A stretch of DNA of 64,000 nt from assembly GCA_050084985.1 (NCBI GenBank), contig JBITNC010000001.1, forward strand, positions 89,404,001 to 89,468,000, written 5' to 3'. Shown piece by piece: positions 2,898 through 57,500 of this stretch. The first letter of the stretch is position 1. Each line of letters starts with the position of its first letter. Made by a program: the position numbers and the translations under genes. Below the pieces are notes generated by a model. That model was not told the origin of the DNA, did no database searches, and worked only from the letters and a program-made list of their open reading frames with translations. The DNA comes from Nageia nagi. Lineage: Eukaryota; Plantae; Pinophyta.

Positions 2898-3563
2898 ATG
2901 GAGGAAGTACTGAAGAGGCCCCTGCTGCTGAAGATCGGGGCGCTTCTACTTCTTTCTATTGCATGCTTCTACCTCGGCAAGCGCTGGGCCACCTCATATG
3001 ACCAGGTTCTAATCATCAACGAAGCAGAGAGCAAGTCCTTCACCAGATCTCCAGCAGTAACCCTCGTCCTCAACGCCACTCGAACCCACGACCTCTCCGC
3101 TTTCAACATCACACTACCACCGCCTCCACCAGCTCAGCCACCACCACCACCGCCGTTTCCGCCACCGCCTCCGCCGCCTTCTTCACTTGGCGTGGTCGGC
3201 GCTGATGGGGCAATGCAGACGAATTTCAGGGTCGGTGCTGACGGGGACCAAGGTAATGATGACGTGGAAGTGGATGGAGCTGAGGTGGAGTCGGAGAATG
3301 GAACGAGCTTCGTGACGTGGAATGTGACTGGATCTGAAGATAAGTGGGAGCCCAATGTGAGGAAATTTGAGATGTGTGCTGCGAATATGAGTGAGTACAT
3401 TCCATGTATGGACAACTTGGAGGCGATCAGGAGGCTGAATAGTACGGAGAGAGGGGAGAGGTTTGAGAGGCATTGCCCTAATAAGGACAGAAGGCTGAGG
3501 TGCAGGATTCCCAAGCCACAGAAGTATAGGACTCCTATTCCGTGGCCTAAAAGCCGCGACGAG
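2898..3563 (+). CDS. PMT11: PMT exon 1 (TM anchor, poly-Pro stem, start of conserved domain)
   Basis: ATG 2898; ends ...[10 protein letters not shown]|GT at 3564. Confidence 0.93.
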
Positions 3564-33500: not shown

Positions 33501-36500
33501 CCCTGATCTTCCTCTGCAATTTGTATTTGGTTATAGCCACTAAATCCATCTAGGAAGGAGAAATATTGCTTACCAGACAAAGTGTCTAACACTTGGTCAA
33601 TGAAAGGTAATGGGAAGTGGTCCTTGAATGTAGCTTTATTGAGAGCTTTGTAGTCAACACATACCCTCCATTTGCCATTTTTCTTAGGCACAATCACCAA
33701 TGGTGAGACCCATTGACTATCTAAGATAGGATAGATGAATTTAGCTTTCAATAGCTTTTCAATTTCAATCTTAACAACTTCTTTAAGTGCAAGATTTACC
33801 TGTCTAGGAGGTTGCTGGACTGGTTTGGTTTCATCCGTATATATATGATGGGTACAAATCTTTGGATGAATACCTTTCATGTCTGAATATTCCAGGCGAA
33901 AGCCTCAGTATGGGTTGTCAAGATATCAAAAAGCTTCTTCTCTTGTTCATCTGTCAACCAACTGCTGATATTAAGAGTCTTTCCTGGTAATACTTCAACA
34001 GTCTTGATCCCAGGTTTGGTCAGATTACTTTGTTTTGGAAGCTGAACCAGGGAATTCAAAGGACAAGAGTGTGGAAATAAAGAATGGAATACTCTTGTTC
34101 TTTCCTTGAAAGTATCCCCTTTTGGAATAATGTGAGTAAGGGGGCATTTGAACATTGCCAAAAATGTTGCCTGATTTTCTGATGGAACATTGAAAATAAT
34201 GTTTAGTAGTGGGTTAACCACTGTATTTCCCTTCTCTTCATCACTGCCCTCTGATTCTTCTTCCTGTGGTTTCGGATAGTGGTACTGTATTTGTTTCAAA
34301 CTAGGATATTCTTTTATCTCTTCAACATGGTTCTTGATGGTAATGGTTGCTAATGTTGCAAAAGTCTCATGTGCATCCGTGTCAAGCTCATCAACCTATA
34401 TTTGGTTGTGATATTCCAACGTTGGTTGGGAAGGTGGGTACAAAGAAAGTGTCTTTGTGTTTAGGCCATTAGAAATGGTCATATCTCCAGACCTACAGTT
34501 GATGTATGCAGTTGCAGTGGCTAACCAAGGTCTTCCTAGTATGACTGAATATCCAGATGGTTGTGCTCTTGTCTTTAGAAACAAAAAATCTACTGGATAG
34601 CTCTAGGAATCTACTGTTAGTTGGACATCTTCCACGATTCCGTCTGGCTTGGCCACTATTCGGTCTGCCATTTGCAACATAGTTGAAGTGGGTTGTATAT
34701 TTGACAGGAATTGCTTTTGAGACATATCCAGAGTCGTGACATTTATTGCTGCTCCCAAGTCAACCAAAACATTGGGCACTTTAGTGACTCCTATGAAAAT
34801 GGTAATAACAGGATTACCTGGATCGCCATACTTAGGAATTACCAAATTTTCGGCCTAAAGATCAGCTACTTTACCATCTACTTTAATAGTCTTTGGATAG
34901 ACCTTTCTTCTTCCTCCCTTTTGGATGCATAGTTCTTTAACCAGCTTGTTTAGCTCAGAAACTTGTTTGATTGCTTGTAATACAGGTATCGAGATATTCA
35001 ATTTCCTTATCTCTTGCAGCAGTTCTGATTCAGTTTCTTGGGGTTTTTCAATCAGTCTTTTTGGATATGGAGTAACTTTTGTTTGGAGCTCCTTGTTGTT
35101 TGCAGGTAGAATTGTTTTTGTTGGTGGCTTTTGATTGTCTTCTGTGTGTTCTCCTGGAGATTCATTTGAGCTGTCCACCTTTACTTCTATGATGACAGGA
35201 GGTACAGGATCTGGCCATTTCTTACCAGATCGAAGTTCAATTTCATTGCATTGGATAACATTTACTGATGCAGTCTCCTTGATCAATTTGATAGGTAGGA
35301 GCTGGAGCTTGCCTGTTATTATTTGGGTTAGGAACAGGTTGGGCTGGAAGAGTAGGTTGCTTTGGAGGTTGTTGCTGTTGATTCATTTGCTGTTGTTGGT
35401 TAAATGGTGGTGGTAGCAAACCTTGCCTTCACTGTCCTTGTACTAGATGATTACTCCAGTTTTGCTGATTTTGTCCTCCATATTGTTGCCATTGTGGATT
35501 CCATTGTGAAGGATCTCATCCATAACCTTCCTAATCTTGAGTTACCATCCATGGGGATATGGTAGCATGCTCCACCAATTTTGATTCGTTGGTCTAGAAA
35601 AATAGCGATTTGGATTCCCTTGGAAATTACTATTTCCCCTAGGTCCCATTGCTCCCATATAGTTCATGTTCATGTTTGGAGCTGCTATAGACATTTGTGC
35701 TATCGTTAGATAGTCACAATCATTTGTTGGATGGTCATTATTGCATAGGTTGCATATATGGGTAGTGTTCAGAGGACATTCATGTAGAGCATGTTTCTTT
35801 CGGCACCTAGGAGAGTATCTTGTTGAAAACTCATTTGTGGTCTCCTTTTTCGAATTCGTAGTTTGAAGAGAATCCTGGACCTCATTCAGTTTATTTGCTG
35901 TTCCCTTCAATTGACTTAATTCAAACAAAACATTAGTCTTGAAGTTTGCAAATTCCTCTTTAATTTCACTTGCCAATCCAGTCTCTACCCAACCATCATT
36001 TTGAAACCTGTCACTTCTCTTATGTGTTCTGGTTCTTGAATAGTTTCTGTAGAGTTCCACAATTTCATCAAGAGTTAACCTATTGACATTACCCTTTCCC
36101 ATCAGATTGAGGACTTCTAATGTGGAATCCAGAAGCCCTCTTAAAAAGATAGTTTTGGAGAATTCGAGATCCATGGTTGTGTCAACTCTTTTATGAACAA
36201 ATAAGAATCTGTCAAGGTAATTTTCAAGGCTTTCTGATGCTGCATGACTGAGTTGAAATAGTTCATCTTTCCTATCTTTGACTCGATAGTATTCTTGGTA
36301 TTTTTCTAGAAAAGCTTTCTCCATTTCATCCCAAGTGGAGATGGAATCTGGAGGAAGTCCCATGAACCACCTCATTGCATTGTCCTTTAGAGTGGATGGA
36401 AAAAGTTTAATTTTTGTTCATCCATCTCATAGTCATAAGTTCTGCACAGTATCTTGAATTCAAATAGAAACTGATCTGGATCCTTATTGGAAAGACCTCG

Positions 36501-39500
36501 AAAGCTAGGTAAGATTGACGGTGAAATGTTCTTCATAGGAGCTTGAGTCCTTATGGCGAGCCTTATGGAATAAGTGAATGTTTGAGTAGAGGGATTAGTA
36601 CCTCCCACTCCAAAACCACCACTTCCTCTAGACATATTGACAAATGGATTAGTATATATCTTCTTTATTTGCTCAAACTCTCGTAATCTCCCCTTGCTGT
36701 AATAAATATGGAAGGGTATCTTGGCTTCTTCTTTTTCTGCTTCATAATCAATTCAACTGGAAAGAGGATGAATATGAATAACGGGTAATAGTAAAGATGT
36801 ATTGGAGAAATGGATGGATGGATGAAGAGTAGTAGTGATTGTATCTGGAGCAGGCTCAACTGTCTCTGTTTGGAGAGTTAAGTTTGCAAACCAAATTGGA
36901 AATGGAGGGGATTTATCAGTAAATCTTTTATATTGCTTAGGTGGATATGAGAATCTCAGAAATGGTGGTGATGATGGACTAATGAAAATTGTCTCTTCTG
37001 CAACGACTGGGTGCTCATTTTGGAGTATGGTTTGCCTCCTCTTCCAAAATTGTTGGATCAATTTCTTTCAATTCTTCCACAGGTCTAGGCTTTGGCCTAG
37101 TTTCTTCTGGTTGCTCCACTTGATGTTCTTCAACAACTATACTGCTTCCCTTTTCTTCCACAACCTTTTTTGAAATCAACTTTTTAGTTTTGGGGGATTT
37201 TTGTTGTGTTTTTTGGACTGATTTTCCTACAGCTACTTTCTTACTACCGTCTTCTTTACTACTGACAAATCTTCTTTTATCATCTCTTGATCTATTCATA
37301 CATTCTCCAGCAAATAAGCACACAAATCTATCACAACTTAGACAACAATTCGCTGCAATTTCTTAATATAGGTTATTGGGGCCACTCATTTTGTGAAGAA
37401 TTGAGGAACCAAGATGGCACCTGATTTCAAATTGGCTCTGTCAAGTCCTCTATCCTTAAGAAGTGCAGGGATAGTTCAATTAACATCGTTCCCTGACAAC
37501 GGTGCCAAAAATGATGAGTAAAATAATGGTATTCCAAATTCCTCCAGGGCTGTCACTACCCTTCCCCTAGTGATCCTTTCACCTGTTATCGTGAAGGGAT
37601 TAGTTAGCTCGTAGAGCTGGTACTCCAACACTCAGGGCAGATTTAGTTTCCTCTCACTAGTCTTGGAAGACAATATTTGACTCCTTCATTTAGTTAATCA
37701 ATCCGGGTGGTGTTCAAGGCTATATGTTATTGAACTCTATTCTCTCAACTGTATCTATTTCAAGTAAACATTGCAGAAAGCAAATATGCAGAATGGAAAG
37801 TTGCAGAATTGAAAGTATAGGAATTTTAAATGCTGAAAGAAATATATACTTGAAATCATCACATTGAATGTAAACTCACACCTGAATTAAAAGAACAGTA
37901 AAATAAAAGTCTTCTACCATTTGGAGTGGGCCTTTGCTCCTCTTGGTGGAAGACTTAGAAGAACTCAGAACTAGAAACTCTTAACAGATCACTTTATTAT
38001 TGCATACAATTTGTCTTGCACAGAATGTGCTTGACAAATCTAATACAAAGTTTTATTCTCAACAGTCTACACACAATACGTCCTTAATCTTCTAACCCCC
38101 CCTACCGTCAAGAACTGAGGTATAAATATCCTCAGTTGTTTAACAATAAGCTGGCTAAGAATAACAATAATCTGAACAATATTCTGTTATAGAAAACATA
38201 ATCACTTATTCAACCAGCTAGCTAATGCTAAAATTAACATGCTAACAGTGCCCACGTCTTATCTAAGGAGAGTTGCAATCCCTTAAGAAAAGGGTGGCTC
38301 ATCTCAACGAGTCAGCACTATCCTATTTACATCATAAGTAGTTTATTATGTCTAATTTGGAGTCAAACATACTCCATAAAACAAGAATCATATCTGACTA
38401 CATCTAATGTGTTGGAGCCATGCTTCTACAGACTATATCTGGAGCAGCTCACATCACGTAAATATCTGGATCATACAAGGCTGGAATAGAGCTGGCAATA
38501 TAGGCAATATAGTCAATAATGAAGGTCAATTTCTTAAATTTGGGTCTGGAGTGGAAGCTCCGGATGAGTCTGAAGTAGAAGCTTCGGACAAGTCTGAAAT
38601 AGAAGCTCTGGACAAGTCTGGAATAGAAGCTCCAGACAATATAACTCTGCTTTATCAAATGAGGCGTCCAATGTGTCCGAGCTCTAGACAATGTATACAA
38701 GTGCAGAATTTGTTCAGAATACTTCTTAACAATACTTGCAACTCATCCAAGTTATCAACCATCATTCCGTAGAGCAAAGAGAAGCATTTTGGTTCAAACA
38801 AACGCACAAAATAGATCAGTATGCACAAAATACTAATATAAGGAGGGTATACATTTAACCATATATTAAGCAACTAAATAGTAAAACAGTTACAATTAAT
38901 CTGTCCCATAATGTCCGAATATACAAAATGAACCATCAAATTGTGCCAAAAACTAGGTAATTACTGAGACTCATCACTATATACAATGAAATCAAGGGAG
39001 AGTTTGCAGTCAAAAGGATTTCTGATGCAACCATCCAAGCTTGGGTACACAGATTTGTACCTACAGTACATTGATCACACGTACATAAGAGTTTATGGCT
39101 CTAAAGAGCAAACTCTTCTTTTACGTAGATAATGCTAGCGATCGACTAGTCCTCATGGAATTTGCCAGGCAATTGTTATTCTTGAAGGGAAAGGTTTGGA
39201 GAAAGAAGGATGCAACGATTAACCTGCCCATCACTATTTCAGGTTACATTTTTCAGACTTGGGTTGAGGCCAAAAGTATGGGAAAGGAGTTGCTACAATA
39301 TGTTTTCTATAAGGAGAAAAAGCTAGATTTTTTGATCCTAGAGGTGTTATAGCCAATTTCTATAACACTGCCTTCCCAAAGCTTATTGCATTTAAATACA
39401 GATCTTTGGGGAATGTAGAGAGATATAGGAACTTGAGAGATAAAAAGAAGATTAAGGATATTGATGCTCTTTTGAGCAAAAACAAGGCTCCTCTCAAGCT

Positions 39501-42500
39501 TGGAAGCAAAATTGCTCAACCTGCACCTCAAGGGGCCAGAAATGTAATAGAAAGACCTACAGAGGTCTCACTTAGGATTAGGATGTCCCCTTCTGCTAGC
39601 AATGCATCTCTTCTGGGTGAGAAGTCTTCCTTGCTTCCTCTTGGGAAAAGACAAGGAACCATTGGTCGACATGCTTCGATGGGTTCCAACAAACACAAGG
39701 CAAAGGCTAATGCAATAAAGATAAGTTAGCAGGTGGTTGCTCTCAGGGAAACTGGCTATGTGAATGTCTCTTTGAGCATATTAGAACAAGCTGTTGTCTA
39801 CCCCAAGGGTAGTTGTGCCAATAATTCCCCTATTAGAAGATCCAATGACACTCCACAAAGATCCTTACATCTTCAAGGGTACAAAGAGAAGGTTCTCCCA
39901 CTAAAACCTAGTACGAGTTCTTCCAGTTGCTCTTCTTCCTTAGATGGAGAAGATCTTGAAGAGTTAGGCTCCTGTGATGAAGAAGGCTCCCATGATGAAG
40001 AGAGCCAAGGTAGGAGGGTTGTAACAAGGGAGATGATGGAGAGGAGAGCTATGAAGATGATGATGATGCTGAATCCAATCCACAAGAGGATGAATTATAC
40101 CTTGCACAAGAAGAGAATGTAGTTGTAGGTGCTTCTGCACCTGATGATACAAAGAATGATACTCTCTCAGATGATGATTTGTTTGTTGATGTATAAAAGA
40201 TTGATGAAAATGTCCAAATTGTTGGAGTAAAGCGCCAAAGAGATGAGCACATCCAGAACTCCTCCTGCAGACCATCGAAAAAAATCACCCTCATCTTCCC
40301 AGAAGACCTCGTCTAAGAGGACCAACCATGAGAGATCTCCTCAACCCCGCATAAAAGTTCTATCATTAGGAGGAGGTGGTAGAGATGAAGAGGATGAAGG
40401 TGATACAAAAGAACAAAAGAAGAGGAAGCAGGATGAACCAAGGCAAAGAAGTTGCCATCATACAAACTACTCCCACAAAAGAAGTCGACAAGAAGTTGAG
40501 CCAAAGTAGAATGCTAGTGTAAAGGCTCCCTCCTAAACCAGCTACTGAACACCTAGAGCTTGACTTGGACGCTTGCTTGAGAGTTTTAAGCATGAGTACG
40601 ACTCATGATGAGGATATTGATCCAGACTTGATGTCCAAGGACAAAGAGGAAGAGCTCTCCGATGGTGAGAAAGTGCAAAGAGTGGATACCTATGTTTGCA
40701 CAGACAGATAGATTTCTGTTAGTCATCGCTACTCCAAGAAGAAGCACCCAAAAAGACTTGAATATTGTTTGATGGAAACTTTAAGATTCCTGCTAAGCTA
40801 GGGTTATCATCAAGGAAGCACATTGTTACCCAAAATGCAGCAATGATGGAGCAAGAGGGCGATGAGGCCAAACAAGAGGTAAGAAGGTTAAAGAAGGAGC
40901 TCACTGCCAATAGGAAAATGATCAAAGAATTTCAGGTTGTGAGTATGACCCCTGTTGAGCTCAAAAGACAAGCTTCATTCCATGTAGGTTGGAAGTTGAT
41001 GAAAGAGTCCTTGAAGAAGGAGACGATGGAGACCATTGAGAGGCTATCTTTTCAAATTTATGGGCTTATCAAGGAAGGAGCTGAGATGAGAGAGTTGAAG
41101 ACTCAAATATCTTCTCTCCTCGAGAAGCTAGATGTACATCTCCCTATTGTTATCAATCTTCAGAGGATGTTTGCTGATAGACTTGAGAAGCATGCCTTGG
41201 ACAAATGCCAAGCGATGCTTAAAGCCAGGGTGCCCCTAAAAAAGGACGTAGAAGAATAGATGGCCCAATACATGTATCAGTTGAAATATCAAGGGGAGAA
41301 TGGTGATGTACGCAAAAAGGATTCAATCTTGGCAAAGGTGCAAAATCTAATCAAAGAGCATCTTGAGATGGAAGACCTCAATCTTTTAAAGGCAAGCAAG
41401 CCCATTCATCATGAGAGGTAGATGGCCATCTGGAGATTTCAGATGCAAGCTACATCTCGACAGATAAGAGGGATATAGAGAAAATGGCAACATCGCAGGC
41501 ATGCTCTCTAGAGGAGTACGGAAGACCTTAGCTTTCTTGGAGGAAGCTATGGGATAATGCAGTCTCACCGACAAAAGCGTGGAACTCCGCAGATGTTGAA
41601 TCAAATTTGCCCTGGATTTGATCCGTTTGCAGATTCTGTTTGCAACTATCTTTTCAGTGTTAAATGCATTTATTGTTCTCAGTTTCATATACTTGATTTG
41701 ATTGGTGCAAGGATTGTTTTTTGCTCCCACTGGTTCAAATGTCAGACTTATTTTCATATCTGATCTTATTTTGCATAGATTAGAGGTTTTGTGGCTGCGA
41801 CATTTATGTTTTGTCAAGTTTTTAAATGCCACTTGCATAGATAAGTGTGATGTGATCTAATTTTGCATAGATATGTGTATTGCATGTGAGCATACCATAT
41901 ATGATTTTATGCATATAGGGCAACATTGCATTTATTGCAACTACTTTTGTGACCTATATATATCCCACTTCGGTCATTTAGAAGGGGATTTTCGCTATTG
42001 AAAGAAAGGAATGCTCCTATTATGTTTTTGAAAATGTTTTGTAAAGTGGATTTCATTTTGGAATAGTGCTTTAAAGAATGTTATGAGTCTTTCATTTGTG
42101 GGATCATGCATGTTATCTTGTAAGAATTTCTTGCCAATTTGAATAGTTTTTTTTGCTTAAGTGCATTCTCTTTGAAAACTAAGGGTTTTAAGAGGAGATA
42201 GTTGAATATTTTGTGAAGTGGTTTGAATTATTCATTGCATGATTCGCAAATAAGTGTATGTATTCTGAGGCAAAAAGTTTATCTCTATATCATTCAGCTA
42301 GAATATGTATTCACGTGTGGTCCTTTCCCTTCATTTTCATTTCCATTGAGTCTTCCATTATAGACCCAACATCTCCTTGCTCTTGTCTAGTAGCAACTTG
42401 AGTTTTGCTATTTGCTGCTAGGCTTGATAAGTGAATATAGATTTCTTAAGGAATCCGGGAATGACCTGTCGAGACATTGCATCATTGGTGATTGCTTCAT

Positions 42501-45500
42501 GTGCTATTTTCTCATTCCTATGCATTTATCCTCACATTTGTGATCTTTCTTCACTTTTGTGATCTTTCTTCGCTTTTAAGCTCATACCTCATGATATAAG
42601 TCAATCATTGAGTCTTGATTGTATACGGTTGAACAATATGCATCTCTAACCATTGTGCATGGGTTCATATTCCATGTGAGTTGCTTTGGGTATAAAGTCC
42701 TTTCAGGCGGACACAAGTAACATTGTCTCCTTCAACTTGAGTGGATGTTTTGGAAGGAAAGAAAAACATACCAACATACACCAAAGTCTCCGAACATGAT
42801 TATATCTTCATTTGATTGTATGTTGATGATATTATCTTCATGAGCACTTCCGCTTCCATGCTGCAACAATTTAAGACTACAATGGTAATCAAGTTTGAGA
42901 TAAGTGATCTGGGTGACATACAGTACTTTTTTGGACATGCAAGTTCAACAGTCATCCAACAACATCTTCATCACTCGAATTAAAATTTTTGATGATATGC
43001 TTGCCAGATTCTTAATGAAAGATTGCAAACTTGTTGGTACCCCTACAATTGTATGTTGTAAATTGATGAAGGAGCATTCTACTCATTTGGCTAATGCAAC
43101 CTTGTACATGTCACTTGGAGGTAGTCTGATGTATCTCAAGGAAGAGGAAGAGGAAGAGGAAGAGATGACAAACAAAACAAACGATGTTACTCTTGTAACA
43201 AGTTTGGTCTCTATGAGAGGGATTGTAGATTGAAGGCTTCTTAAGAAGGGAAAAATAGTGCACATTATGGAGAAGAGGATAGATCTTAAAATATTTTTTT
43301 GACTTATGGCAAGGCTGATCAGAATTTGCAAGAGACATGGATACTTGGTATGGGCTGCTCCAACGACATGTCTGGCAAGAGAGAGTTCTTTGCTACCATG
43401 GAAAACTCATACAAGTCCAAGATCAGGCTTGGAGATGACAAGGCCTTGCATGTTGAATGCACTGTAGCCATGGAGGTGCACACCAAAGAAGGTAAAAATA
43501 AAGTAAATGACATTTATCACACTCCAAATTTAAAATACAATTTGTTGACTCTTGGTCAAATAATGGAAAAGAAATATAAGCTTGTTTTTGAAGATGTCAA
43601 GTGTGTAATATTTGATAAGAATAATAGTCATAGGTTGGTCACAACAGTCCTTATGACAAAGAATAGATTATTTCCATTAAAATATGGAGGACAAGGGGTT
43701 GGTCTTGCAAATATTGCTATAGAAAACAAAAATTGGTTGTGGCACCTTAGATATTGTCATTTAAACTTCACAAGTTTGAGATTATCAATAGCTAAAGAAA
43801 TGGTATATGGGATACCGAAGGTTGAAGATCACAAAGGAGTTTGTGAAGGTTGTGTTTTGGGAAAGCACTCAAGATCAAGTTGTCCAAGAGGAAGGAGAGC
43901 TACTTCTCCACTACAATTGGTGCATTCTGACATAAGTGGGCTAATGCAAACACAAAGTTTGGGTAAAAATTACTACTTTCTCACTTTTATAGATGATTTC
44001 TCAATAATGTGGTGGTTCTATTTGTTAAAGACCAAAGATGAAGCTTTTGAATGCTTTAAGGATTTTGAAAATCATGTTAAGAACCAAAGTGGATATTTTG
44101 TAAAATGCTTAAGCATTGATAGAGGAGGGGAATTTTGCTCAAATGAATTCCTTCATTTTTGTAAAGATTGTGGAATCAAAAAGGCAACTCACTATTGCCT
44201 ACACTCCACAACATAATGGTGTGGCTGAGCACAAGAATAGAACCATTGCTGAAATGGCTAGAAGCATGCTTCAAACTAAAAAATTGACAAATATCTATTG
44301 AGCGATGCGGTTAGGACAACAGTCTATATTTTGAATAAGAGTCCTATTAGCAAGCATATTGACATTCGCCATCATTTTATGAGAGATTTGGTGAAAGATG
44401 GATTCATTGAATTCAAGTTTTGTCCTTCTGAAGACCAGTTAGCAAACATCTTCACCAAAGCATTACCAAATGATCGATTCCTCAGTCCTTGAAATTGTAT
44501 TGGAATTCAACCCATTCACATTAAGGTGAGAATGAGGGAATTTAATGTTCCATAGTTTGAATTCCATTTTGTTCCATTTTGGACACACCTCTCGTGCACG
44601 TACATCTCCTCCAACGGTTAGTACATGTCGGATTGATTCTTCACCTATCGACATTTATTTCCTTCGCAGATGTGTAGTTGAGCTCTTAATACTCACAATT
44701 TGATCAAATCAATCTTGGATGCACAAACATGGATGCCCATCCCTTTCTGATAGATTTCATTTATGTTTTTCCTAATTCTCTAAGCAGACTGAGTTGTAAC
44801 ATCTCTTGGAGTCTCAGACATTCGATTTTCTTTTTTCTATAAATAGGGACTTCATTTCCCATTGTAAGTAAGTAGGAGAATATTGTAATGTTATGCTGCC
44901 TTTTTGAACACTCATAATAGAAAACATTTTGTTTGCTCTGCAACTCTCTGTTTTCATTTTCTTCGTGTTGTTGAGCGATTGTGTATGACTCAAGCTATTG
45001 GTGCAGGCATCTTGAAGTTGATTTGAGGTATTTCTTATCGCTAAGTCCGTGTTTTAGCTACTTAGTATTGATCAAATTCTCATTTTGTGTTTCTGATTGT
45101 GAGATATCGTGGTTTGTTCTTTTGTTGCCCTGTCTTGGGTCTTAGACAAGTCTGAATGCTTAAGTCTTCGGCTTAGCTCTTTAGCCTCGTGATTTTCTTT
45201 ACTGGAATCACGTCCAAACCAGATCTCCCTCTTTGCAATTGTTTGAATTTGTTTTTTAGACCCTTTCTACATTACTGAACCTCCATCTTCAAGACAAAAC
45301 CATGTTTCAGGCTTCTCGAGAGCTTTCCTTGCTTGCTAGATGTATTTTTGGTGCGTTGCTGTGTTGTGCCATGTTTGCTGTGCCTTACAAAGCCTTTTTG
45401 TGCTGTGTTCTAATTTTTGTTGATGTCATCTCTCTTACCGCCCGACACTTAAGTGTTTTTCGTGCCTTACCGGTCCCTGATCAAACTCGTGCTGATGTCA

Positions 45501-48500
45501 TCGCTCTGGCTTTCCTGACATTCAGTGTATTTCACCATGCCTTGGCCAAGTCTCTAATTAGCTGATGTTATCATCGTTCATTTTACTAAAGTGCTTTCAC
45601 CTTTGCTTTTTCTGCTTTGCCAACACTTCTAAGGCCTTGTGCAGATGTCATAGCTCTTGCTGCCTGACACTTAGCACTTCTCCTGTCATGCCGTGTTTCA
45701 AAAATCCTTCTGTTGACATCATTGCTTTCGCTGCTCAAGATTCTATGTTCTTTTTATGACATGCCAAACTTACTTTGAACTTTAGTTGATGTCACTATTC
45801 TTGCTAGACGACAATTAGTGTTATTTGTGCCTTTGTTGTTGTGCCACATTCCGACAAACTTGTTGTTCACATCACCATTTCAAAAGTGCAACAATGCATT
45901 TTTTACTCTCTTTGTTGCAGTCTGGGAAAGTATTTGTTGACGTCATCCTCACAGAGTGTGGCATTGCCCCTTTTCTTCCAAGAAAGTATTTGCTAACATC
46001 ATCATCTCAAAAGTGTGGCATTTCGTATATTGCCTTGTCTTGTATCACAACAAAGCTTCTGCTGATGTCATCAGCTTGAAAGTGCGACAATCTGACTTTT
46101 GCAATGTTCCTGACCGCAACAACTCAATTCCTGATTGCGGCAACTTCATTATTCCGTACAACAACTGAGTTTGACTGCGACCGCTTGATATTTGATTGCG
46201 GCAATCCTTATGTTGACCGCGACATCTCAAATTCTTCATAATATGCCTTCTTATCGGTGTCCTTAAAATCGTACCAAAACTCAACCATCCTCAAAGCCCT
46301 TTATTGAACTTTGGGTAAATTTCATCAGATAATTTAATGACTCAAGTCTACTTATATAGCAAGCTTATTCCATCTAAACCATCTATGCTGTTTACAGATG
46401 TGGACCATCTTGATACACCCATGATGGAGTGCATTTAAGTAGAGTATATGTATGTATGTGTGTGTTGTTAGTCTGCAATGTGATTGTACTCAAGCACTAA
46501 CTACTAGATGGTTCATTTTTGAGATGTCATATTAAACTTCAGCTTGAGGACTTGAGTATGGCAGTCAGCAACTGACTTTGGGGATCTTATTTGTCCTTCA
46601 TTCTCAAAAACCTATTATGATCGAGTCTCAGTATTTATGCCTTTAGTCATCTCTATTGGATCCTTAATTGAGTATTAGGTTTAAGGAGGCTTCTTAGTTC
46701 ATTCCTATCAAGTGGCTATATCATGTGCCTATACCGTGAGGAGCCTAATCACTCACATCTCTTATGAGAGGGAAAGATAAGCTCTTGAGAGGCACCAAGT
46801 GACCCAATCTTACTAAGAGATAAACATCTGAGGGGCACCAAATTGTTGCACTTTACAGGGAATGAAGGACACAATTACTGCACCTAAATATGGTGAACAT
46901 TTGTTGGGAAATGCAGCTAAGTTGATTGTATTTGTAGATATTTTTTTTCCTGCATTTAAGTTTTTTGTCAGCTCACCAAGACAAGCTCTATTATGATGCA
47001 GCTTAGGGTTAGCAAGTAATCTTGGTTCAAAAGGAGGTTAAGTCCCTAAGGGTAAGTTAAAAAGGTTTATTTCTTCTTATTCTAACCAAACACTTGATTA
47101 CATCCTTTGTGATGGTTTAAATCAAATTTCCCAATTTTGTCTTTGGGGTGATTTTTACCTCACCTTCTTAGCAAGGTCTTGGAATTTAATTGTGGTGCTG
47201 TAGGGTGGGTCTTTGGGTTCACTGAATATGTTTATAACTTTATACAGACATGGGTCTTATCAGTCGAAAGATCTTGTGATGGCCATTGCAGTAGTTTTAA
47301 CTTTGAATGCTATTGAGTTTCTAGTTATAATAAAAATTTAAATAAATACAAACTTATGTCATTCTTTTACTTTTTGATACTTTGTCTTTTAAATATTTCC
47401 TGACTTTGTTTATTTATGCTTTGTAGAGATGGAAGATCTTGCCACAAGGATTTGCTGGAAGCTTGTTAAGAAGGAGGGTTACATTGCGATTTGGCAAAAA
47501 CCTGTCAACAACACTTGTTATGTTAATCGAGATGCAGGAGTCAAACCTCCTTTATGTGATGTGAATGATGACCCAAATGATGTTTGGTAAGCAACAAAAT
47601 TTACAGTGTAATGAGTAAAAATTTCACATACAAATATTGAGCGGAATAGATGTTTATTTTATTGTTTAATTATGCACAATTAAATTGAAAATTAACTGGC
47701 ATTTAAGGTTTCTTTCATTAGGAGAAAGCTGTTGCACATTGTTTAGTTGTTTTGATCGATGGGAACTAGAGGTCTCAATAAATGCATCTACATTTTAGTT
47801 GGAATAACTATGCTGCAGGGCTTAACCTACAAGGACAGACATACGTGGAGAGTTGAAAGTTGAAACAGTGTCACTAGTGTCCATTAATATGTAAATTTGG
47901 TTCAGAAGTTGTTTTCAAGATGATTTTGTTGTGCTGAGGATTATGAATTATCATGAAGATTTCACAATCGGTCTCTCACAGCTGCATCTGGCTAGAGCCA
48001 CTCACTATCTGCACAATGGTGGCTGTAGACACAAAAAAGAAAACAACTTATTAAAATATGTACAATTAATTGTTTATGGAAATGAAAACTAAATTAACAG
48101 TTAATTGCAGTACAGAGATCTAGAGACTATGATTTATATAGTATTTACAAGAGGAGGTACAAAGAAGACTTCTCTGGAAAATTGGGGGATTAGAGGATGG
48201 ACAGATTGTATTCTTGGAGGATGAATCTTGGGATGAAATCAGTAGCTTCCTAGACTGGTTTGGGTTCGATCTAAGTCAGGGACCAGATCACCCACATTTT
48301 GGGGTTGAGGTCCAAATCACCTGCATTTTGGAGTTGAGGTCTAGAATGCCCACGCTTTGGAATCCAATTTCTAATTTGCAATGACCTTCAGTTGATGTGT
48401 TCTACAATGTTCTGCTTGTTCCTAGCGATCCTCTTGTGGAATTTTGGTGCCATACCTGCAGATGACTTAAGAAAAAGCTTGGAATGATGTTGATTAGTCT

Positions 48501-51500
48501 TGCAAAAGATAATAGTGTTAGAGCACTTCTTGCGTATTTCCATAATTTCTATCTTATTTTTTCATATCAAATGAACTTTTGCTCTTTGCTTTGTGTAGAT
48601 GGTATGGTGTAGTTCGGATGTGCAACAACCTTCAGTTGCAATGTTTGACTTGTTTCGAGTGATTCTCTTGTGGAATTTTGTTGCGATATCTTCAAATATG
48701 ATTTAAGAAAGAGCTTGGAAGGATGTTGATCAATCTTGCAAAATATTTTAGCATTAGAGCACTTCTTGTGTATTTCTTGAATGTCTTTCTATCTTATTTC
48801 TTCATATCAAATGAGCTTTTGCTCTTTTCTTTGTATAGACTTGAAGAAGTCTAATTTTGAACTCACCTTGGTGAGAGTATACAGTCTTGGTGAGAGTATA
48901 CAGTCTGATGTGTATACCAAATAATGTGAAACTAAAAGATATTACTTAATTTTTAAAAATGACCTCAAGTGGGTCCAAAATTGATGCTTTACATAAGTCA
49001 AAGAAAACACTTACAATAAATACATTTAAAATAGAAAAAATTCGAATTGAAGTGCTTATAAATGTTGGAGTATATAATGTAAACTTAGGTATGTATGTTC
49101 TAGTTATTTATTTAAAATAACAAGAACATATTTTATTGCTGTAAATACCCAAAAATTAAGGATAAAAAGTTAACCAGGAATGTAAACAAAGTGGTATGGT
49201 CCACCTATACATGTCAACAAATAGGTATGGGCTACATGTTTGTAATTAATGATAGTTTGACTGTCAGATCAATCCATTGGATTGAGTATGAAGGAAGAAA
49301 GCTAGTCATAACAAGTTAGAGGGTGAGACACATTGTAATGCCTAATTGTAAATGTTTCATATTTTTGTGAAAGAGAGTAATACAAGGATTGAGACTTCAA
49401 AGTGGATGTTTGCTTGCTTTGTTTTGCAACAAGGATTTTACCACTATGAATTGCATCTTTTGTGTGCTTGAATCTTATACTCATTGTTACAGTTGAGATT
49501 CTATTATGGATGGTATTACTTGCATAGTTGACTGTTTAAACTGAGGAACGATCATTCATATTTGTGGGATTCTAACAATAGATTGCTCCTTTTGGCGGTG
49601 TGGTTAACGGAAAAAATGAAATGTTATTAATGTCTATGATGGGTCAAAAGTGACCCAAGGGATTGAGAAAAGAGTACATTGAAAACTACAAGTAAGGGGT
49701 CAAAATTACCTAGTTAGAGAGAAAACAAAAAATAAATATAAAGAGTGCAAAACATGCTGCATGAAAATGAAGACAACCATAAAAAGAACTCTCTTTCAGC
49801 CTTATGAACTAATCTCTCCTAACTTGGTGAATCACTGTCGAAGAAGTTATTGATTTGTCTTTGCATATCATTGATCTGGAGTCCCAAAGATCCATAGGTA
49901 CGCTGTCTAGTGATCTTGTTGATGTTTAGATGATTTGGTGCCTATCGTTTTCGACCAATATCTATATCCTTCCTGTTGTGCTTGCACAACACCCCCCAAA
50001 ATTTTTGCATTTTGAGGACCCTCGAAATTAGAGAATAATGCATGGAACTAAACATTTGTCTAAGGGAATGTATGCATGCTAGTCTAGCTTCGGGAAACAT
50101 GTTAAACCTACACTTTCATGGTCACATCAAATTAGAAATACACATTTTCCTCAGTCGCATGTTTTTGAGTGAGTGCTTTTGCACACCTTTCAAACGGTGC
50201 AACCAACCTCATGCTGCATTTTCACGCTTATCATTTGCATTTTCAGTCTTGAAATTGCACTTTTAGGGTCCCTCATGCTGCAAAAATTCGTCTCCCCCTC
50301 ATTGCATTTCATGTTTGAAGTCATTTTGGTCAAAATGCAAGGTTAAAAAATGTGTTTTCGGCTTGTCACATGTTTTCAGGTGAGTGCTTTTGCACCCCAC
50401 CCAAATGGTGTGACCAGGTTAGAGCCTCTCATACTTAGCATTTTTCTATGACAAAACGTGTCGCATGTTTTTAGGTGAGTGCTTTTGCACCCATTAGAAC
50501 CATGTGACCAAGGAGGAAGTCATTCATACTTAGCCATTTTTGAGGCCATCGAAGCTTGTCACATGCTTTCAAACAAGTGCTTTTGCACCCCACTCAATCC
50601 ATGTGACCTGGAAAAGGGGGACTTGGCCATTTTGGGACAATCAAGGCTAGTTGCATGCTTTCAAGTGGGTGCTTTTGCACCCATCTCAAAGTGTGCGACC
50701 AGATTCATGAGGTGAAATTTGGCTAAGTGTTGGGTCCAGATTGTTGACAAGTGGAAATACATGCATTTGAGCCCCTCTTGCACCTATCATGTGGTGACAC
50801 CTGTCCAACTTGGAAGGCTATAAAAGGAAAGTCAGTTTTAGTCATTTTGTTTGCAAATTTGTCTAGAGCATTGCATGGAGCCAAGAGAGAAAAGCATGTC
50901 CTCCAAAACGTGCGATCTATGTCAAATCAGCATTTTTCAAGTCATTTTGAAATTTTTGGTCTTGGGATGCATGCCAGACCCCAGGCGCAAGGATCAAGGT
51001 GCATGCTTTTGCACCCTTTCAAAACGATGCGACCAAGGATTGAGCTTCAGTGTTGGCTTGAAATTTTGGCCAAGTGTTTAAGAACCTAGTTGCATGCTTT
51101 TCATCATATGCTTTTTCACCCCTTTAAAACCATGCACCCCTGTTTTGGCTCCGTCATTCGACCCCTAGTTTGACCAACTCGAAGGTGACACATGGAAGTA
51201 CCAAATGTTATAAATATTATCTTAGATTTATCACCCTTTCCCCAGTTGCACCATTTCTAATGCATGCTTTTGCACTCATCTAAAGCAGTGCACTAGGGAG
51301 AAATAAGGAATCTAGTGGGACGTTGTGCATTCAGATAGCTTGTTTTTGGCTAAGGCATTTCAGTGAAGTCCCAAGCTCAAGGCGCATGCTTTTAGACACA
51401 TGCTTTCTCACTCATCCAAATCCATGCGCCCAGGTGTGAGGTGAAGAATTAAGCTCTAGAATTTGACTAAGTGACCCTAGGCCCAGTCGCATACTTCTCA

Positions 51501-54500
51501 AGCTGTGTTCAAGCACTCATTCAAAACTGTGTGCCTAGGATTGCAAGGTGAAATTGATCAAGTGCAAGGCGCTAGGAGTTGAGAGGAGAGGATGACAAGT
51601 GGCAAGCATGCACCCTGCCATGCATTCACCCTCCATGCATCTCATATAAAAGGGGAAGCAACTATCATTCGGAGTGTTGGAGGTCCTATAGCCCAGGTTT
51701 GTACGTCTGGTTCTACATTACTGCATTCTTCACAACGTCCAGACTCGTTCCTAGGTCCTTCTGAGGGCATTATCAAATAATCCTACATGGCTTCCAGTAT
51801 TAGACAACCTCCATCAAGGGCCAGGAAAATTCAAGGGCAACTATTTGAGAGACATGTAACCAAGAGCCAGATGACCCGACTTTTGAAGGAGAGCCTGATT
51901 GAGTTTCAGGAGAAAGAGAGGCCAGAGCTCTCTGAGGCCAAATTCAAAGGGAGATACATCTCTGTTGGTGATACAAACTGGGGAAACTTGGACCCCATCC
52001 AGACTTTAGCTTGCACAGCCTCCATCAGTAAGGAAGACTTATCACAAGAGCTCATCCACACATGTGGCTTGTTCAACGCCACAATGATGCCTTTTGCAGT
52101 ACCTTTTCCTGACTTGTGCTACAAGGTTGCTAGGAAATGTGAATATGACAAGAGAGTCCTATGGGACACAAAAGGCAATGTAACCATGGACTTCTCCCGT
52201 GCTGGAATTGAAGAAGCCTTTGGCTGGAGAAGGTATGGGGACGATTACACTTTGGCATACTCTAAAGAATTCCATGATTCCATGTCCCGGCCTGAGGACT
52301 ACATTTGGCCTTGGTTGCTGGAAGATTGCCAAAATCTTCAAGGTCAGATGCTGATCACCGCTTGTAGAGAGGAGTTCTTGCCTATTGTAGCCAAGCTGAT
52401 CACTCTCTTATTGAGGGTTACTATTCAGGAGAATGATACTAAGTATAGGAGGGAGTTCACAGGCTTCATTGGAGTTATAAGCTCGAGGAGAGCTATCCGA
52501 TGGGCTGGGGTAATCAATGATGCCCTACGCCACCAATTAGCCTATTTCGGCTCTTCAAAGAGATTCTATATGAATTCCTATCTTGTATACCTGTTATTGC
52601 ATGGCAAGGTTAGATCCAAGGGGCTGACCGATGAAAGATATCTAGGACAAAAGAGCACCCTTGTGTGGCAAGCTTATCCAAAGTGGTGGTACTAGAACAA
52701 GTTCCAACATTTATGTGAGAGGAATGATCATTGGAAGTATGATATCTATAAAGATATCAAAAGGGAGTTCGTGGTAAAGAGGATTTCTAATGCAACCATT
52801 CAAGCTATCAGTGTACATGCGGATTTCTTCCTACAGAACGTTGACCATACTTTCATCATAGTCTATGGCTCAAAGGAGTGACCCCTACTCTTGCCAGGAT
52901 ATGTCAGTGACAGGCTTATCCTCATGGAGTTTTCTTGTCAGCTCTTGTTCTTGAAAGAGAAAGTTTGGAAGAAGAAGAATGCGACCATCAACTTGCAAAT
53001 CTCTATTGCAAGATATGTGTATCAAACATGGGTTGAGGCAACCAATATGAAGAAGGAGCTGCAGCAGTATGCCTTTTCCAAGGAGGCGACTGTAAGAAAC
53101 TATGATCCTAGGGCTATAATTGCACATTTCTACGACACTGCATTCCACAAACCTATTGCGTTTCTGCATAAGTCTTTGGGGAATGTGGAGAAGTACCAGA
53201 ACGTGCAGGATGAGGAGGAGATTGTGAGGATAGATGCTCTTTTGAGAAAGAAAAAGGCTCCCCTCCAAGCAAAAAAAACCACCTCAAAGACCCTGAACCA
53301 CAAAGCCTAGATCTAGGGAGGTCTCTCTTAGGATCAAGTCGTCTCCTTGTCTTGCTCGTACTGCATCTCTACCAGGCAAGACGTCCTTGCTTCCTATTGG
53401 AAAGAAGCAAGAGGTTTTGAGGGAACACATTTTAGGTCCCAGCAAGTGCAGTGTAGTGATGGTTGATCTCAAGGATGATGGCTATCACACTCTCCCGTCG
53501 GATATGCTACATGTAGTGGATGAGGCTTGTGCCAGTGATTCACCCACAAAAACGGTTCCGGTCTCTTCGAGGCTCACTCATTCTCCTAGATGTAGGGAGA
53601 AAGTTCCTCCTTTGCAACGAAGTTCCAGTTCCAGTTCTGAACGTTCCACTTCCTCTTTCGACGAAGAGACTGATGAAGAGCCTGGTCGTACAGCAAAAGA
53701 TTCTCGAGAAGAATCGGAAAGCCATGGTGGAAAAGAAGAAGAGGAGGAAGAAGAAGAAGATGATGTTACCGTTGTCCCAAGAAGATGTAGCTATAGGTGC
53801 ATCTGCACCCAATGAGATAGATTGAAACTCTCCCGGACGATAATGAGATAGTGGACATTGGAACATACGATGATGACATCCATATTGTTGGAGAAAAGTG
53901 TGCTAGAGAGGTGGGTGCCTCTAAACCCTCTCTTGCTGAGCATAGGAAGAAGTCCCCTTCCTCTTCGCATAAATCCTCCACAAAGAGGACGAGCCATGAG
54001 TGATCTCCCCAAGCATGAAACAAAGGTATATCTATAGGCGTTGATGGAGGAGATGAGGAGGATGAAGGAGAGACTGAGGAACATAAAAAGGAGAGAAGGT
54101 AGGAAGAGCACCAAGGCAAGGAGATTGCCGTAGTTCAGACCACTCCAGCGAAAGAGGTTAAGAAGATCAACAAAGGGCGATTATTGGTTCAGAGATTCCC
54201 TCCCCAGCCAGCAATCGAGCATCCAAATCTTGACCTAGATGCTTGCCTTAGAGCCCTCAACATGAGCATGACTCATGATGAAGATATAGACTAGGACCTG
54301 CGTTCTAAAGATGAGGAGGAAGAGCTTTTGGATGGTGAGAAGATTCGAAGGGTTGACACGTTTGTCTCCACCTCTTGAAAGGAAATCTCCATCAGCCATT
54401 GCTATTCGAAAGAGAACCATCTTCAGAGAGCAGAAGACTGTGTCATCGAGACATTCAAGATGCCGGTAAAGTTAAGATTGACCGCCCATAAACATATTGT

Positions 54501-57500
54501 CACCCAGAATGTTGCAGTCATGGAGCAGGAGGGGTACGAAGCCAAGGAGGTGAAGGGGTTGAAAAAGGAACTCACGGCTATCAGGAAAATCATCAAGGAG
54601 TTCCAAAAGGTCAGTACCACCACCTTCAATCTGCAGAAACAAACTTCCTTCCATGAGGGATGAGAATTGATGGAGCAGGTGAAAAAGGAAATGATGGAGG
54701 TCATCGAGAGATTGTCTTCTCGAATTTACAAGCTCCTTGCTAAAGGTGTGGAAGTCAAGGACCTTAAGACGCAAATTTCAGCACACCTTGGCACTATGAA
54801 TAGCCATCTTCCCAACTTCTCCCATTTGCAACATATTTATGCTGATAGTCCCGAGAAGCTAGTCTACGACCACGAGTTCACATACCATCATGATTGGTTG
54901 AACCACGCACTTGAAAAATGCAACGCAGTTTTGAAAATCAAAATCCCCTTGAGAAAGGAAGTCGAGGAACAAATGAGTGAATATGTCTATCAGCTCAAGT
55001 TCCAAGGGGAGGACAACAATGTGAGAAAGGAGGAGGTGGTATTGGCAGAGGCTTAGAACCAGATAGAGGAGCACCTTGACATCAATGACCTCAGTTTGCA
55101 GAAGGCAAGGCATCTTATCATCCATGAGAGGCGGATGGTCATCTGGAGACACCAGATGCAGGCTACATCGAAGAAGATAGAAGACTACTTTCGACTGAAT
55201 GGTAGCACCGTTGGCATGATTTCCAAGGGTGTAGGAGACCATTGAGTCGTACGCTCTCACTAATGAGGAGTTGAACTCCGCCAGTATTGGATCAGATTTG
55301 GCTTATGTCCGATCCACCCGTAGATTCTGTTTGCGGTATCTTTTCTTTTGTTAAATGCATATTTGATGGTGGTTGTTATGTCAGACTCTATTTCATTTGA
55401 TTTGACTGGTGCAGGGATGAGTTTTTGCTCCCAGTAGGTCAAATCAGTCAGACTTATTTATTACTTTGGCGGGTGCAGAGATGACGTTTTGCTCCTATCG
55501 GTTCCGATGTCAGACTTCTTTATTGCATATCTGATTTACTTTTGAGTAGTTTAGAGATAGATTAACTGCATGTTAGTTGTGGCATTTATGTTTTGTCAGA
55601 CTTTTAAGTGCTGCTTGCATCAATTCATGTAAGCAATCTCATTTTGTATCGGTATGTGTGTTGTGTGTGTGCACACCATATCAGATCTGATGCCTTTAAG
55701 GCAACACTTCTAGTGGCCTATTTATACCCCATCCTAGCCATTTAGAAGGGGATTTTTGCATTTGGGATTTTTGCACTTGAAATACTACATGATATTATGC
55801 ATTGTTGCATATGTGAGACTTTGCACTTGATGGAAATATTGCATATTGAGGATATTGCATTTTTGGGATGCTAGCTACAAGCTTCTATGTGTGTAAGAAT
55901 TTTTGAGTTGTTGCATTCTTAAGCATTTACATTCCATTGCATAGAGGTTCGTTGTATAAAGGGGTTTATGCATGTTCATCATTGAATATTATTATGAATG
56001 TATGTCTTTTGAGGAATGAGATTATAAAGTTAATAATATGAAGGATGTCATTTGTGGGATCATGCATATATGAGAAACTTTCCATTTGGAATTTTATATT
56101 GAATATTCATTGAAGTGGTTTGAGTTTTCTTCGCATGGTTTGCACGTAAGTGGATGTATTATGAGGCTTATAGCTTGTCTTTATATCATTCAGTTAGGTT
56201 CTTGCACTCATGCCCTCATTTCATTTATTTTTCCCACCAAGTGTTTCACCAAGACCCTATAGCTTCTTGCTCTCGTCTGGTAGTGATTTTAGCATATTTT
56301 TCTATTTGTTGCCCGACTTGATAGTGGTTACATTGACCTTAATGAATCTGAAGATGACGTGCCGAGACATTGCATCACTAGTGATACCTTCATAAGTTCA
56401 TCCTTCCTCGTATTTCTTTGCATTTACCCATGTGTTTTGTCCCTGCATTTGTGATCTTTCTTTGCTTTCGTTCACATTTGTAGTTTTTCTTTATTGTGGA
56501 AAGGAACTCTGGTGTCATATTTCCCTTGTATACGGTTAACAACATGCATCTCTGACTACTGTGCCTTCAAGACCATGTTCCATGTGAGTGCTTGGGGTAA
56601 CTAGTCCTTTCAGGCGGAAACAAGTAACACTGTTTCCTCTAAGTCTTGTGCATGTTTTGGACTAGGAAAGAAAAACATACCAACACCTCCTCAATCTATC
56701 AAAGTTGGTGAAGTAGGTTGTGATAAGCCTAGACTGTCAGGGATGGAAGATTTTTGGATGAGAGCTCCTTTGTCAACGAAATTGGATTGTGTCTTTGATG
56801 TAAAGTCCAAGGCTGTGTTGGTCCTCATAATTGAAAAATGTGGGTAGAGAGCGTGATTCACCCCTGAAGAGGTAGTGGAATCTCCCTCGAATCTCATAGT
56901 AGATCAGACAATGGAAAATAAAGTGATGTAGAGTTCTACTTCCCCCAGGGAGCCAAATATACATATTTGTTCCTCCCTTAGTATATGGTGATCTTTCTCA
57001 ACACGAAGTTGGTGGGAGCACACTCGAAGTTTTCCAATGGAAACCTTTATGCCATGTGTCATAGGTTGCCGAAGGTATTGAGGAGGCACTATCCGACCAT
57101 CTTGAATATGAAGAAAGTGCTCTTTATAGAAGGATAGCTTGGGGGCGAGAGGTGTAACAGGAGATATCCAAGTGCAATGGGTGTATTGAAGAGTGAAATC
57201 TGTTAGAATCTCACAAAGTATCTTTGACTGTATTGGAGAGAATTCAAGATCACATGCCCCAAAATATAAAAAAAAAGATATAGAGCTTGATGAAGGCTTG
57301 CACAATTGCTCTTATTAAGATTATGCAAGATGTTAGGTAAAATTAAATATGTTTTGAAAAACATATGATGGTCAAACCTATTGTGATATGGTTGGAGACT
57401 TGTTGCTGCCCCAAGGGCTGAAAAGATTAGGCGAAAGCATTGATGAGCATGCTCTCTTTGATCGATGGAAATGGTATTGATTGCTTGTTTTGCTTTTGAG

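Follow-up and report, generated by a model that had tools for sequence, protein, structure and literature searches.

Candidate solo LTRs with a conserved accessory gene in two adjacent introns of a Nageia nagi methyltransferase gene

Two LTR-shaped units in one host gene

We analysed a 64,000-nt stretch of the Nageia nagi genome (contig JBITNC010000001.1 of assembly GCA_050084985.1, positions 89,404,001 to 89,468,000, forward strand; hereafter the window), in which two related units, A and B, are shaped like the long terminal repeats (LTRs) of retrotransposons and each contain a decayed copy of the same long gene. The window represents plant DNA in which the introns are very long and filled with transposons, among them a gypsy element, two fragments of copia elements and a DUF659 piece of hAT type. 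A single Methyltransf_29 gene, encoding a putative pectin methyltransferase, spans it on the + strand, with exons at ~2883–3614, 8073–8691, 19115–19198, 47393–47587, 61100–61354, 61642–61788 and 62484–62561. The original prediction of two insertions in one host gene holds: A lies within the intron 19198..47393, inside a copia reverse transcriptase (RT) sequence, B lies within the next intron, and methyltransferase exons flank each unit on both sides.

Termini, target duplications and collinearity of the units

Unit B (49974..56685, + strand; 6,712 bp) runs from TGTTG to CAACA, with borders defined by reading of its ends, blastn alignment with A and steps in repeat depth. Unit A, interrupted by a nested gypsy element, consists of a left part (23520..26568, + strand), which includes the 5′ end, sub-repeats, a predicted promoter (P1, at 25438) and the N-terminal domain of the open reading frame (ORF; 25766–26509), and a right part (38984..42776, + strand), which includes the remaining ORF, a second predicted promoter (P2, at 41953), a tail and the 3′ end. 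After removal of the nested element, A measures 6,842 nt from TGTTG (23520) to CAACA (42776) and is collinear with B from end to end, in six blastn blocks at 64–70% identity, as had been proposed. The conserved 5′ terminal block (49974..50023 in B, + strand), which holds two small palindromes (TGTTGTGC..GCACAACA and CCCCAAAAT..ATTTTGAGG), is 86% identical between A and B over 52 nt, compared with 43–58% over the following 1.6 kb; the last 110 nt are also 86% identical. Both units finish with the same 21-mer, GGAAAGAAAAACATACCAACA, an identity longer than first described, which is invariant in A, B and a third copy, C, introduced below. This 21-mer occurs twice in the window at up to three mismatches (0.00 expected) and the 5′ motif TGTTGTGCNNNCACAACNCCCCC occurs twice as well (0.02 expected). 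The terminal inverted ends of A and B extend over 5 bp only (TGTTG/CAACA).

Each unit is bordered by a target-site duplication (TSD) of 5 bp with one mismatch, TACAT (23515..23519) and TACAC (42777–42781) around A, CTTCC (49969..49973) and CCTCC (56686..56690) around B; these duplications and the TGTTG start were found as originally claimed. The duplication is proved for both units, because the interrupted reading frame can be restored for A and empty sites are present for B. Unit A splits a copia RVT_2 domain, whose profile positions 95–154 run up to the left border and 166–206 continue from the right border, and deletion of the unit together with one TSD copy restores the RVT_2 reading frame. 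For B, genome-skim contigs (five in skim X1, two in X2 and three plus three in X3) join the left flank (...CAATATCTATATCC..) straight to the right flank at 56689/56698, with a single copy of the pentamer in each. With TG..CA ends and this 5-bp duplication, A and B were inserted by an integrase-type event; besides retroelement integrases, we know of no plant superfamily that combines such ends with 5-bp TSDs.

Unit B is a high-copy repeat in all three of these low-coverage genome runs, and read depth steps exactly at 49974 and 56685 (in X1, 44 to 378 on entering the unit at its 5′ border and 1600 to 63 on leaving it at the 3′ border). In the three skims, coverage of the final ~55 nt of B (56630–56685) is ~3 times that of the preceding 40 nt and 5–8 times that of the remaining tail. 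Many more elements therefore possess this terminus than possess the whole unit, an indication of a large lineage whose members have the same 3′ end. Ten nucleotides from this end lies an invariant purine run, GGAAAGAAAAA (56665–56675), which, like the two 5′ palindromes (49992–50022), is conserved across A, B, a fourth copy, D, and, within its known 3′ side, C; integrase sites, priming and protein binding are candidate roles for these blocks.

The lack of gag/pol, a primer-binding site (PBS), a polypurine tract (PPT) and terminal direct repeats, noted at the outset, was borne out. None of six ORF pieces tested in B gave a gag or pol match in Pfam, local alignments between the 5′ and 3′ ends of A and of B scored 20–34 against maxima of 30–39 in 100 shuffles, and neither unit, read on both strands, contained a PBS or PPT. 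A PBS-like TGG is also absent directly after the 3′ end of both A and B. Accordingly, we reject a large retrotransposon derivative (LARD) or terminal-repeat retrotransposon in miniature (TRIM) whose short LTRs are hidden inside the unit. Such elements resemble the units in having no gag/pol, in being moved in trans and in their LTR-type ends, but they carry two terminal direct repeats enclosing a PBS and PPT, and the units have none of these.

A long ORF maintained by purifying selection

The expected single long degenerate ORF was recovered from each unit. In B it spans 1,149 codons from an ATG at 51787 (51787..55233, + strand), which aligns with the methionine of two database fragments (P0003 and P0004), and it is decayed by 25 in-frame stops and at least two frameshifts. 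Its first 302 codons (51787..52692, + strand) form an intact N-terminal domain, predicted to be all-alpha, with VANC21 as the best fold match in the Protein Data Bank (PDB). Both window copies are dead, B through its stops and frameshifts and A through the gypsy insertion.

Comparison of A with B places the coding signal in the + frame from ~51877 to 55180, which scores far above the other five frames. Over 762 ungapped codons, the proportion of synonymous differences (pS) is 0.84, a saturated value, and that of nonsynonymous differences (pN) 0.21, giving pN/pS 0.25, against 1.0 and 1.26 in shifted control frames. The pair B and C gives nearly the same ratio over 506 codons (pS 0.71, pN 0.18, pN/pS 0.26; control frames 0.84 and 1.28). 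The ORF was thus kept under strong purifying selection in two independent pairs while synonymous sites became saturated, and ratios of 0.25–0.26 against 0.84–1.28 in the controls indicate that it encoded a working protein through a long divergence of the family.

A profile of the N-terminal 300 residues retrieved 86 relatives among 1.84 billion representative sequences. The sources of 20 of them were looked up and comprised 16 Logan contigs, two JGI entries, one ENA entry and one Taxus chinensis cluster. An intact T. chinensis protein of 1,034 aa, with 22 near-identical members, has the same architecture as the window ORF, namely the N-terminal domain, a middle part rich in Ser/Pro and charged residues, and a helical C-terminal third. 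Since the distant relatives include named T. chinensis proteins, the family is a gymnosperm one. Pfam assigned no family to any of the 81 members scanned, including PMD, DUF1985 and all transposase families. Protein word searches for longer proteins returned none with the window ORF, and two Taxus models without a gag/pol fusion with the relative P0087. A metagenome scan with an alignment of P0029 and P0050 produced 47 pattern matches, none of which was confirmed, and a scan of IMG/VR with two DNA patterns and two proteins returned nothing.

Motif arrays, predicted promoters and the non-coding tail

Upstream of the ORF in B, an array of ~50–60-nt sub-repeats (50150..51540, + strand) contains many RY (CATGCA) boxes and eight copies of the core GTGCTTTTGCAC, all on the + strand and within 1.1 kb. 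Six copies are present in A, five of them on the − strand, and the other 50.6 kb of the window contain no exact copy. In both units the arrays sit in the 1.6 kb upstream of the ORF, where A and B hardly align (43–58%). The sole block upstream of the ORF that is conserved between A and B is P1, predicted at 51607..51655 (+ strand) from CATGCA at 51607, 51619 and 51634 and TATAAAAGGGG at 51645; its TATA box, at 51645 in B and 25438 in A, lies ~140 nt before the ATG. Repeated RY boxes beside a TATA box are a hallmark of seed and embryo promoters.

Behind the ORF, the further TATA-like box followed by ~0.8–1 kb of tail that had been described was found again, at 55717 in B and 41953 in A, with tails of ~0.8–0.95 kb. 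This second predicted promoter, P2 (55560..55760, + strand; CCTATTTATAC at 55717 and TAGAAGGGGATTTT at 55743), points the same way as P1 and is conserved in A, B, C and D. Its TATA box lies 0.8–0.97 kb from the 3′ end in A, B and C, and the block is 74–79% identical among these three copies, compared with 51–60% in neighbouring sequence. Conservation collapses after P2 and rises again over the last 560 nt. The tail (55761..56685, + strand) shows no frame-specific conservation that would signal coding behind P2. Folding of three tail sequences gave a covariation term of only −1.86 kcal/mol, and the sole stem with two-sided changes is broken in A.

Two further copies and the ORF-less form

Metagenome contigs were scanned with the terminal 21-mer, which yielded 59 loci, of which only one (contig L051) proved related to the units. 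The 21-mer is also exact in many gut-metagenome contigs besides L051, presumably within a conserved bacterial gene unrelated to the plant element, and the 11 matches among GTDB genomes fall in contigs titled Lachnospiraceae, Eubacterium or related gut bacteria, which we take as chance.

Contig L051 contains unit C, with the ORF from residue ~250 onwards followed by P2, the tail and the same 3′ end. Only this 3′ side is known, the 5′ half being cut off by unrelated DNA at L051:3299. Nested in the tail of C on the other strand is D (L051:7026–9611; 2,586 bp), which shares the family 5′ end with both palindromes, the sub-repeats, the P2 block and a 3′ end with the same purine run. The P2 block of D carries an identical CCTATTTATACCCCAT, 915 nt from its 3′ end. 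P1 and the ORF are missing from D, in which no ORF exceeds 100 codons. Because D keeps the termini, P2 and the tail in the absence of the ORF, the ORF and P1 behave as an optional 4-kb cassette, located in what would be the U3 (unique 3′) region if the units are LTRs. No relative with the ORF outside the unit was found among the copies examined. On its minus strand, the same contig also matches the C-terminal third of the ORF weakly (L051 12399–13707; 18% identity, E 3e-5), and a 200-nt repeat is 77% identical between 12399–12606 and D (7913–8115); this region, close to the end of the contig, may belong to another, more distantly related member of the family.

Predicted fold of the encoded protein

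AlphaFold modelled the N-terminal domain with good confidence as all-alpha (predicted local distance difference test 82, predicted template modelling score 0.79), and the remainder of the protein is charged and helical. Exhaustive structural alignment of the window-ORF model against 48,161 PDB chains placed 9lnk_A, VANC21 with its target DNA, at the top (Z 5.8, root-mean-square deviation 4.4, 202 residues; next match Z 2.2). A model of the relative P0029, 23% identical, gave the same chain (Z 6.2, root-mean-square deviation 5.8, 228 residues; next match Z 4.1), which is the sole match above Z 5 for both models; the two models share most alignment rows and are not fully independent, and both matches lie below the caution line of Z 8 for such alignments. 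Foldseek against the PDB with the N-terminal model returned no match at E up to 0.001. In the ESM Atlas, P0029 gave no usable match and the leads for the relative P0108 all scored below 0.85, including a DUF1985 cluster at 0.79.

These models suggest that the N-terminal domain probably has a fold like that of VANC and of the DUF1985 and plant mobile domain (PMD) group. VANC is described as an anti-silencing factor of VANDAL transposons that binds a 9-nt motif, densely arrayed in the same orientation within the non-coding parts of its own transposon (PMC5735166). The DUF1985 domain of VANC has been reported to be structurally similar to the PMD of MAIN/MAIL1 (bioRxiv 10.1101/2024.09.27.615353 and PMC13547354), and PMD-A clades are encoded by Gypsy retrotransposons (PMC5418596).

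The fold also bears on whether the units could be cut-and-paste DNA transposons of a new superfamily, with the ORF as transposase and the sub-repeats as its binding sites. Sub-terminal repeat arrays, long and short forms with common ends, a single large ORF and TSDs of constant length would all suit such an element. However, the inverted ends span only 5 bp, as opposed to terminal inverted repeats of 10 bp or more, Pfam scans of the ORF family detected no transposase family, and a conserved promoter facing a 3′ end with no ORF behind it would be left unexplained. Furthermore, the all-alpha N-terminal domain finds its best match in a DNA-binding accessory protein, not in an RNase H-like or catalytic domain, and with the remainder charged and helical a transposase is an unlikely reading of the ORF. 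We consider this origin highly improbable.

Proposed interpretation as solo LTRs with a gene in U3

Read from the 5′ end, the unit comprises the conserved terminus, the motif array, the predicted P1, the ORF of ~1,150 codons, the predicted P2, a tail of ~0.95 kb and the 3′ end. We interpret A and B, with somewhat better than even confidence, as solo LTRs from a lineage of giant LTR retrotransposons in gymnosperms that carries a complete gene cassette in U3, of which no paired copy has been seen; the lineage is probably Ty3/gypsy and Tat-like. In A, B, C and D a conserved TATA block is followed by a non-coding tail, which corresponds to a predicted U3–R (repeat)–U5 (unique 5′) layout, and the persistence of the ends, repeat region, P2 and ~0.9-kb tail in the ORF-less D argues for the same layout. 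Judged from their sequence, the conserved 5′ 50 nt, the last 110 nt and the invariant 21-mer are as would be expected of integrase attachment (att) sites and U5. A promoter that faces a non-coding 3′ tail, as P2 is predicted to do, is explained by no model other than an LTR. The probable kinship of the protein with the extra ORFs of Gypsy elements and the size of the units, close to that of the largest known LTRs, speak for the same interpretation.

Under the solo-LTR interpretation, P2 would start the genomic RNA, making the tail R-U5, and the ORF would occupy the 3′ end of that RNA and recur in each LTR. P1, with RY boxes like those of seed and embryo promoters, would let each LTR, solitary ones included, express the protein alone. 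The product is predicted to begin with a VANC/DUF1985-PMD-like DNA-binding domain, followed by a middle part that is charged and disordered and by a helical C-terminal part. It may recognise the GTGCTTTTGCAC arrays that precede its own gene and thereby oppose silencing of the family, in the manner of VANC in VANDAL transposons. Solitary copies would arise by unequal recombination between two 6.7-kb LTRs.

The original prediction of a solo LTR with a gene inside U3 therefore stands with respect to the LTR-type ends, the TSDs, the TATA layout, the ORF-less form and the selected gene, while the pair around PBS, gag, pol and PPT that it calls for was never seen. Several observations weigh against it. 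The paired arrangement was found in none of the four copies: A, B and D are bordered left and right by unrelated sequence, and the 3′ end of C adjoins a long interspersed nuclear element (LINE), with LINE RT and zf-RVT domains directly after it, rather than a PBS. Contigs that continue past 56685 in the three skims (9, 16 and 5, n=30) have no common continuation, agree at 0.43–0.49 and in no case start with TGG; this consensus was taken by contig count, so that a minority PBS junction could stay hidden. Conifers are reported to hold ~1 solo LTR per 4–7.5 complete elements (PMC5751070), and several solitary copies without a pair would accordingly be unexpected if the host behaved similarly, although it may differ from Picea and Pinus in this respect and the sample is small, at four copies. 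The literature searched, including a review of additional ORFs (PMC7264820), contained no plant LTR with a conserved gene. On the protein side, the VANC21 fold match is modest (Z 5.8 and 6.2, under the caution line), a PDB sequence profile search gave no match at E up to 10, and none of the 81 members scanned had a PMD or DUF1985 sequence match.

The solitary state of every copy is also what would be seen under the alternative offered at the outset, in which the units would be stand-alone, LTR-shaped elements without an internal region, moved by the RT and integrase of other LTR retrotransposons. Such elements would exist as 6.7-kb ORF-bearing and 2.6-kb ORF-less forms, and would supply the ends, the promoters and, in the long forms, the accessory protein. 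Unrelated flanks around A, B and D, the LINE behind C and the absence of a common continuation of the 3′ end in the 30 skim contigs of three runs all fit, as does the scarcity of solo LTRs in conifer genomes (PMC5751070). The long and short forms share only termini, P2 and tail, as pairs of autonomous elements and their deletion derivatives do, and the purine run and 5′ palindromes could conceivably serve priming. Nevertheless, no known scheme of reverse transcription copies a unit whose RNA starts at P2, behind U3, and one copy by itself would need a second LTR, a tandem or a circle to restore its U3. Neither junction has a PBS-like TGG, and the purine run is not adjacent to the TG end. Four copies make a small sample, and unequal recombination is a simple explanation for solitary LTRs. 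We regard stand-alone elements as unlikely, if a serious contender. Their fuller form, in which the units constitute a new class of gymnosperm gene cassettes with a borrowed integrase, their own anti-silencing factor and target arrays, and ORF-less forms that ride along, is distinctly doubtful.

A related possibility is that the units are LTRs of a large, LARD-like non-autonomous element with a non-coding internal region, the LTR ORF being its only gene. The evidence for an LTR serves this origin as well as it serves an autonomous lineage, no gag/pol of a matching family was seen beside any copy, and LTRs of ~4.5 kb have precedent among LARDs. However, none of the copies showed an internal region of any kind, and we rate this origin as improbable.

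Relation to known systems and significance

Among described plant elements, Ogre/Tat retrotransposons come closest in several respects. Their LTRs reach up to 6.5 kb, with TG..CA ends and 5-bp TSDs (PMC6431247 and PMC6317226), many carry an extra ORF, and PMD-A clades are Gypsy-encoded (PMC5418596). At 6.7 kb the units are at the top of the known LTR size range, to judge from the Ogre LTRs of 1.9–6.5 kb (PMC6431247). In contrast, the extra ORFs of Ogre/Tat elements are described as internal, placed either before gag or in the stretch from pol to the 3′ LTR (PMC7264820), and the LTRs are called non-coding (PMC6431247), whereas here the ORF lies between the TG and CA ends. The units further differ in the lack of a Pfam PMD match, in their gymnosperm lineage and in having no RT tied to them.

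The unit protein, like VANC, is a transposon-borne accessory product, and VANC21 is the sole clear PDB fold match of its modelled N-terminal domain. Both systems combine dense arrays of a short motif in the element's own non-coding part with a protein made of a conserved domain and a highly variable region (PMC5735166). The two proteins share no detectable sequence similarity, and VANC is reported as dicot-specific and encoded by a class II element (PMC13547354). The unit ORF is about twice as long as VANC and has a long helical C-terminal part; its anti-silencing role is a prediction only.

A further analogue is the sag gene of mouse mammary tumour virus (MMTV), a gene of ~320 codons. Like the unit ORF as interpreted here, sag is a protein gene wholly within U3, hence carried by both LTRs of an element and retained when only one of them remains. 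It comes from an animal retrovirus, encodes an unrelated protein and has no target-motif array, so that the analogy is one of position only. Full-text searches for ORFs inside LTRs turned up mainly work on MMTV and its sag gene and yielded no plant example. For plant LTR retrotransposons, extra ORFs have been described in the internal region (PMC7264820, PMC6317226 and PMC11963269), and what appears to be new here is an LTR-type unit with a selected accessory gene, its own predicted promoter and a putative target array inside U3. Should the units prove to be stand-alone, they would be something categorically new.

In plants, LTRs are regarded as promoter and terminator pieces without coding content, and annotation pipelines cap LTR length (at 6,000 bp in one survey, PMC6317226), so that such units would be overlooked by LTR finders and gene finders alike. 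If a selected gene of 1,150 codons with its own promoter does reside in U3, each of thousands of copies, orphans included, would be a potential expression unit for a factor predicted to act on the chromatin of its own family. Anti-silencing by a VANC/PMD protein paired with a DNA motif would then extend from dicot DNA transposons to gymnosperm retroelements, and could bear on the failure of giga-genomes to hold such families down.

Host gene and neighbouring elements

Both units are oriented in sense relative to the host methyltransferase gene, with P2 facing downstream, which makes readthrough into host exons testable. In T. chinensis, a gene model of 1,125 residues (P0109) fuses the unit-ORF family to Methyltransf_29 domains. 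Its exons are 45–65% identical to those of the window gene, of which it is by this measure a paralogue, and the fusion is probably a mis-joined model spanning an intronic insertion.

The element nested in the ORF of A, and separate from the unit, is a Ty3/gypsy retrotransposon of 12.4 kb (26569–38978, − strand), with 1.45-kb LTRs that are 92% identical and the TSD CTATA. It looks complete, encoding gag, RT, RNase H and integrase, and its position within the ORF sets a minimum age for A. Copia sequence occupies 21963–23519, 42777–42980 and 43290–44213. The copia element split by A retains Pol_BBD, SH3 and RVT_2 matches. A second copia protease–integrase stretch lies directly after the RT piece; this domain order misfits a single element, so at least two copia copies are present. 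A DUF659 ORF, of the hAT-type transposase-associated kind, lies in a long intron on the minus strand (12856–13218).

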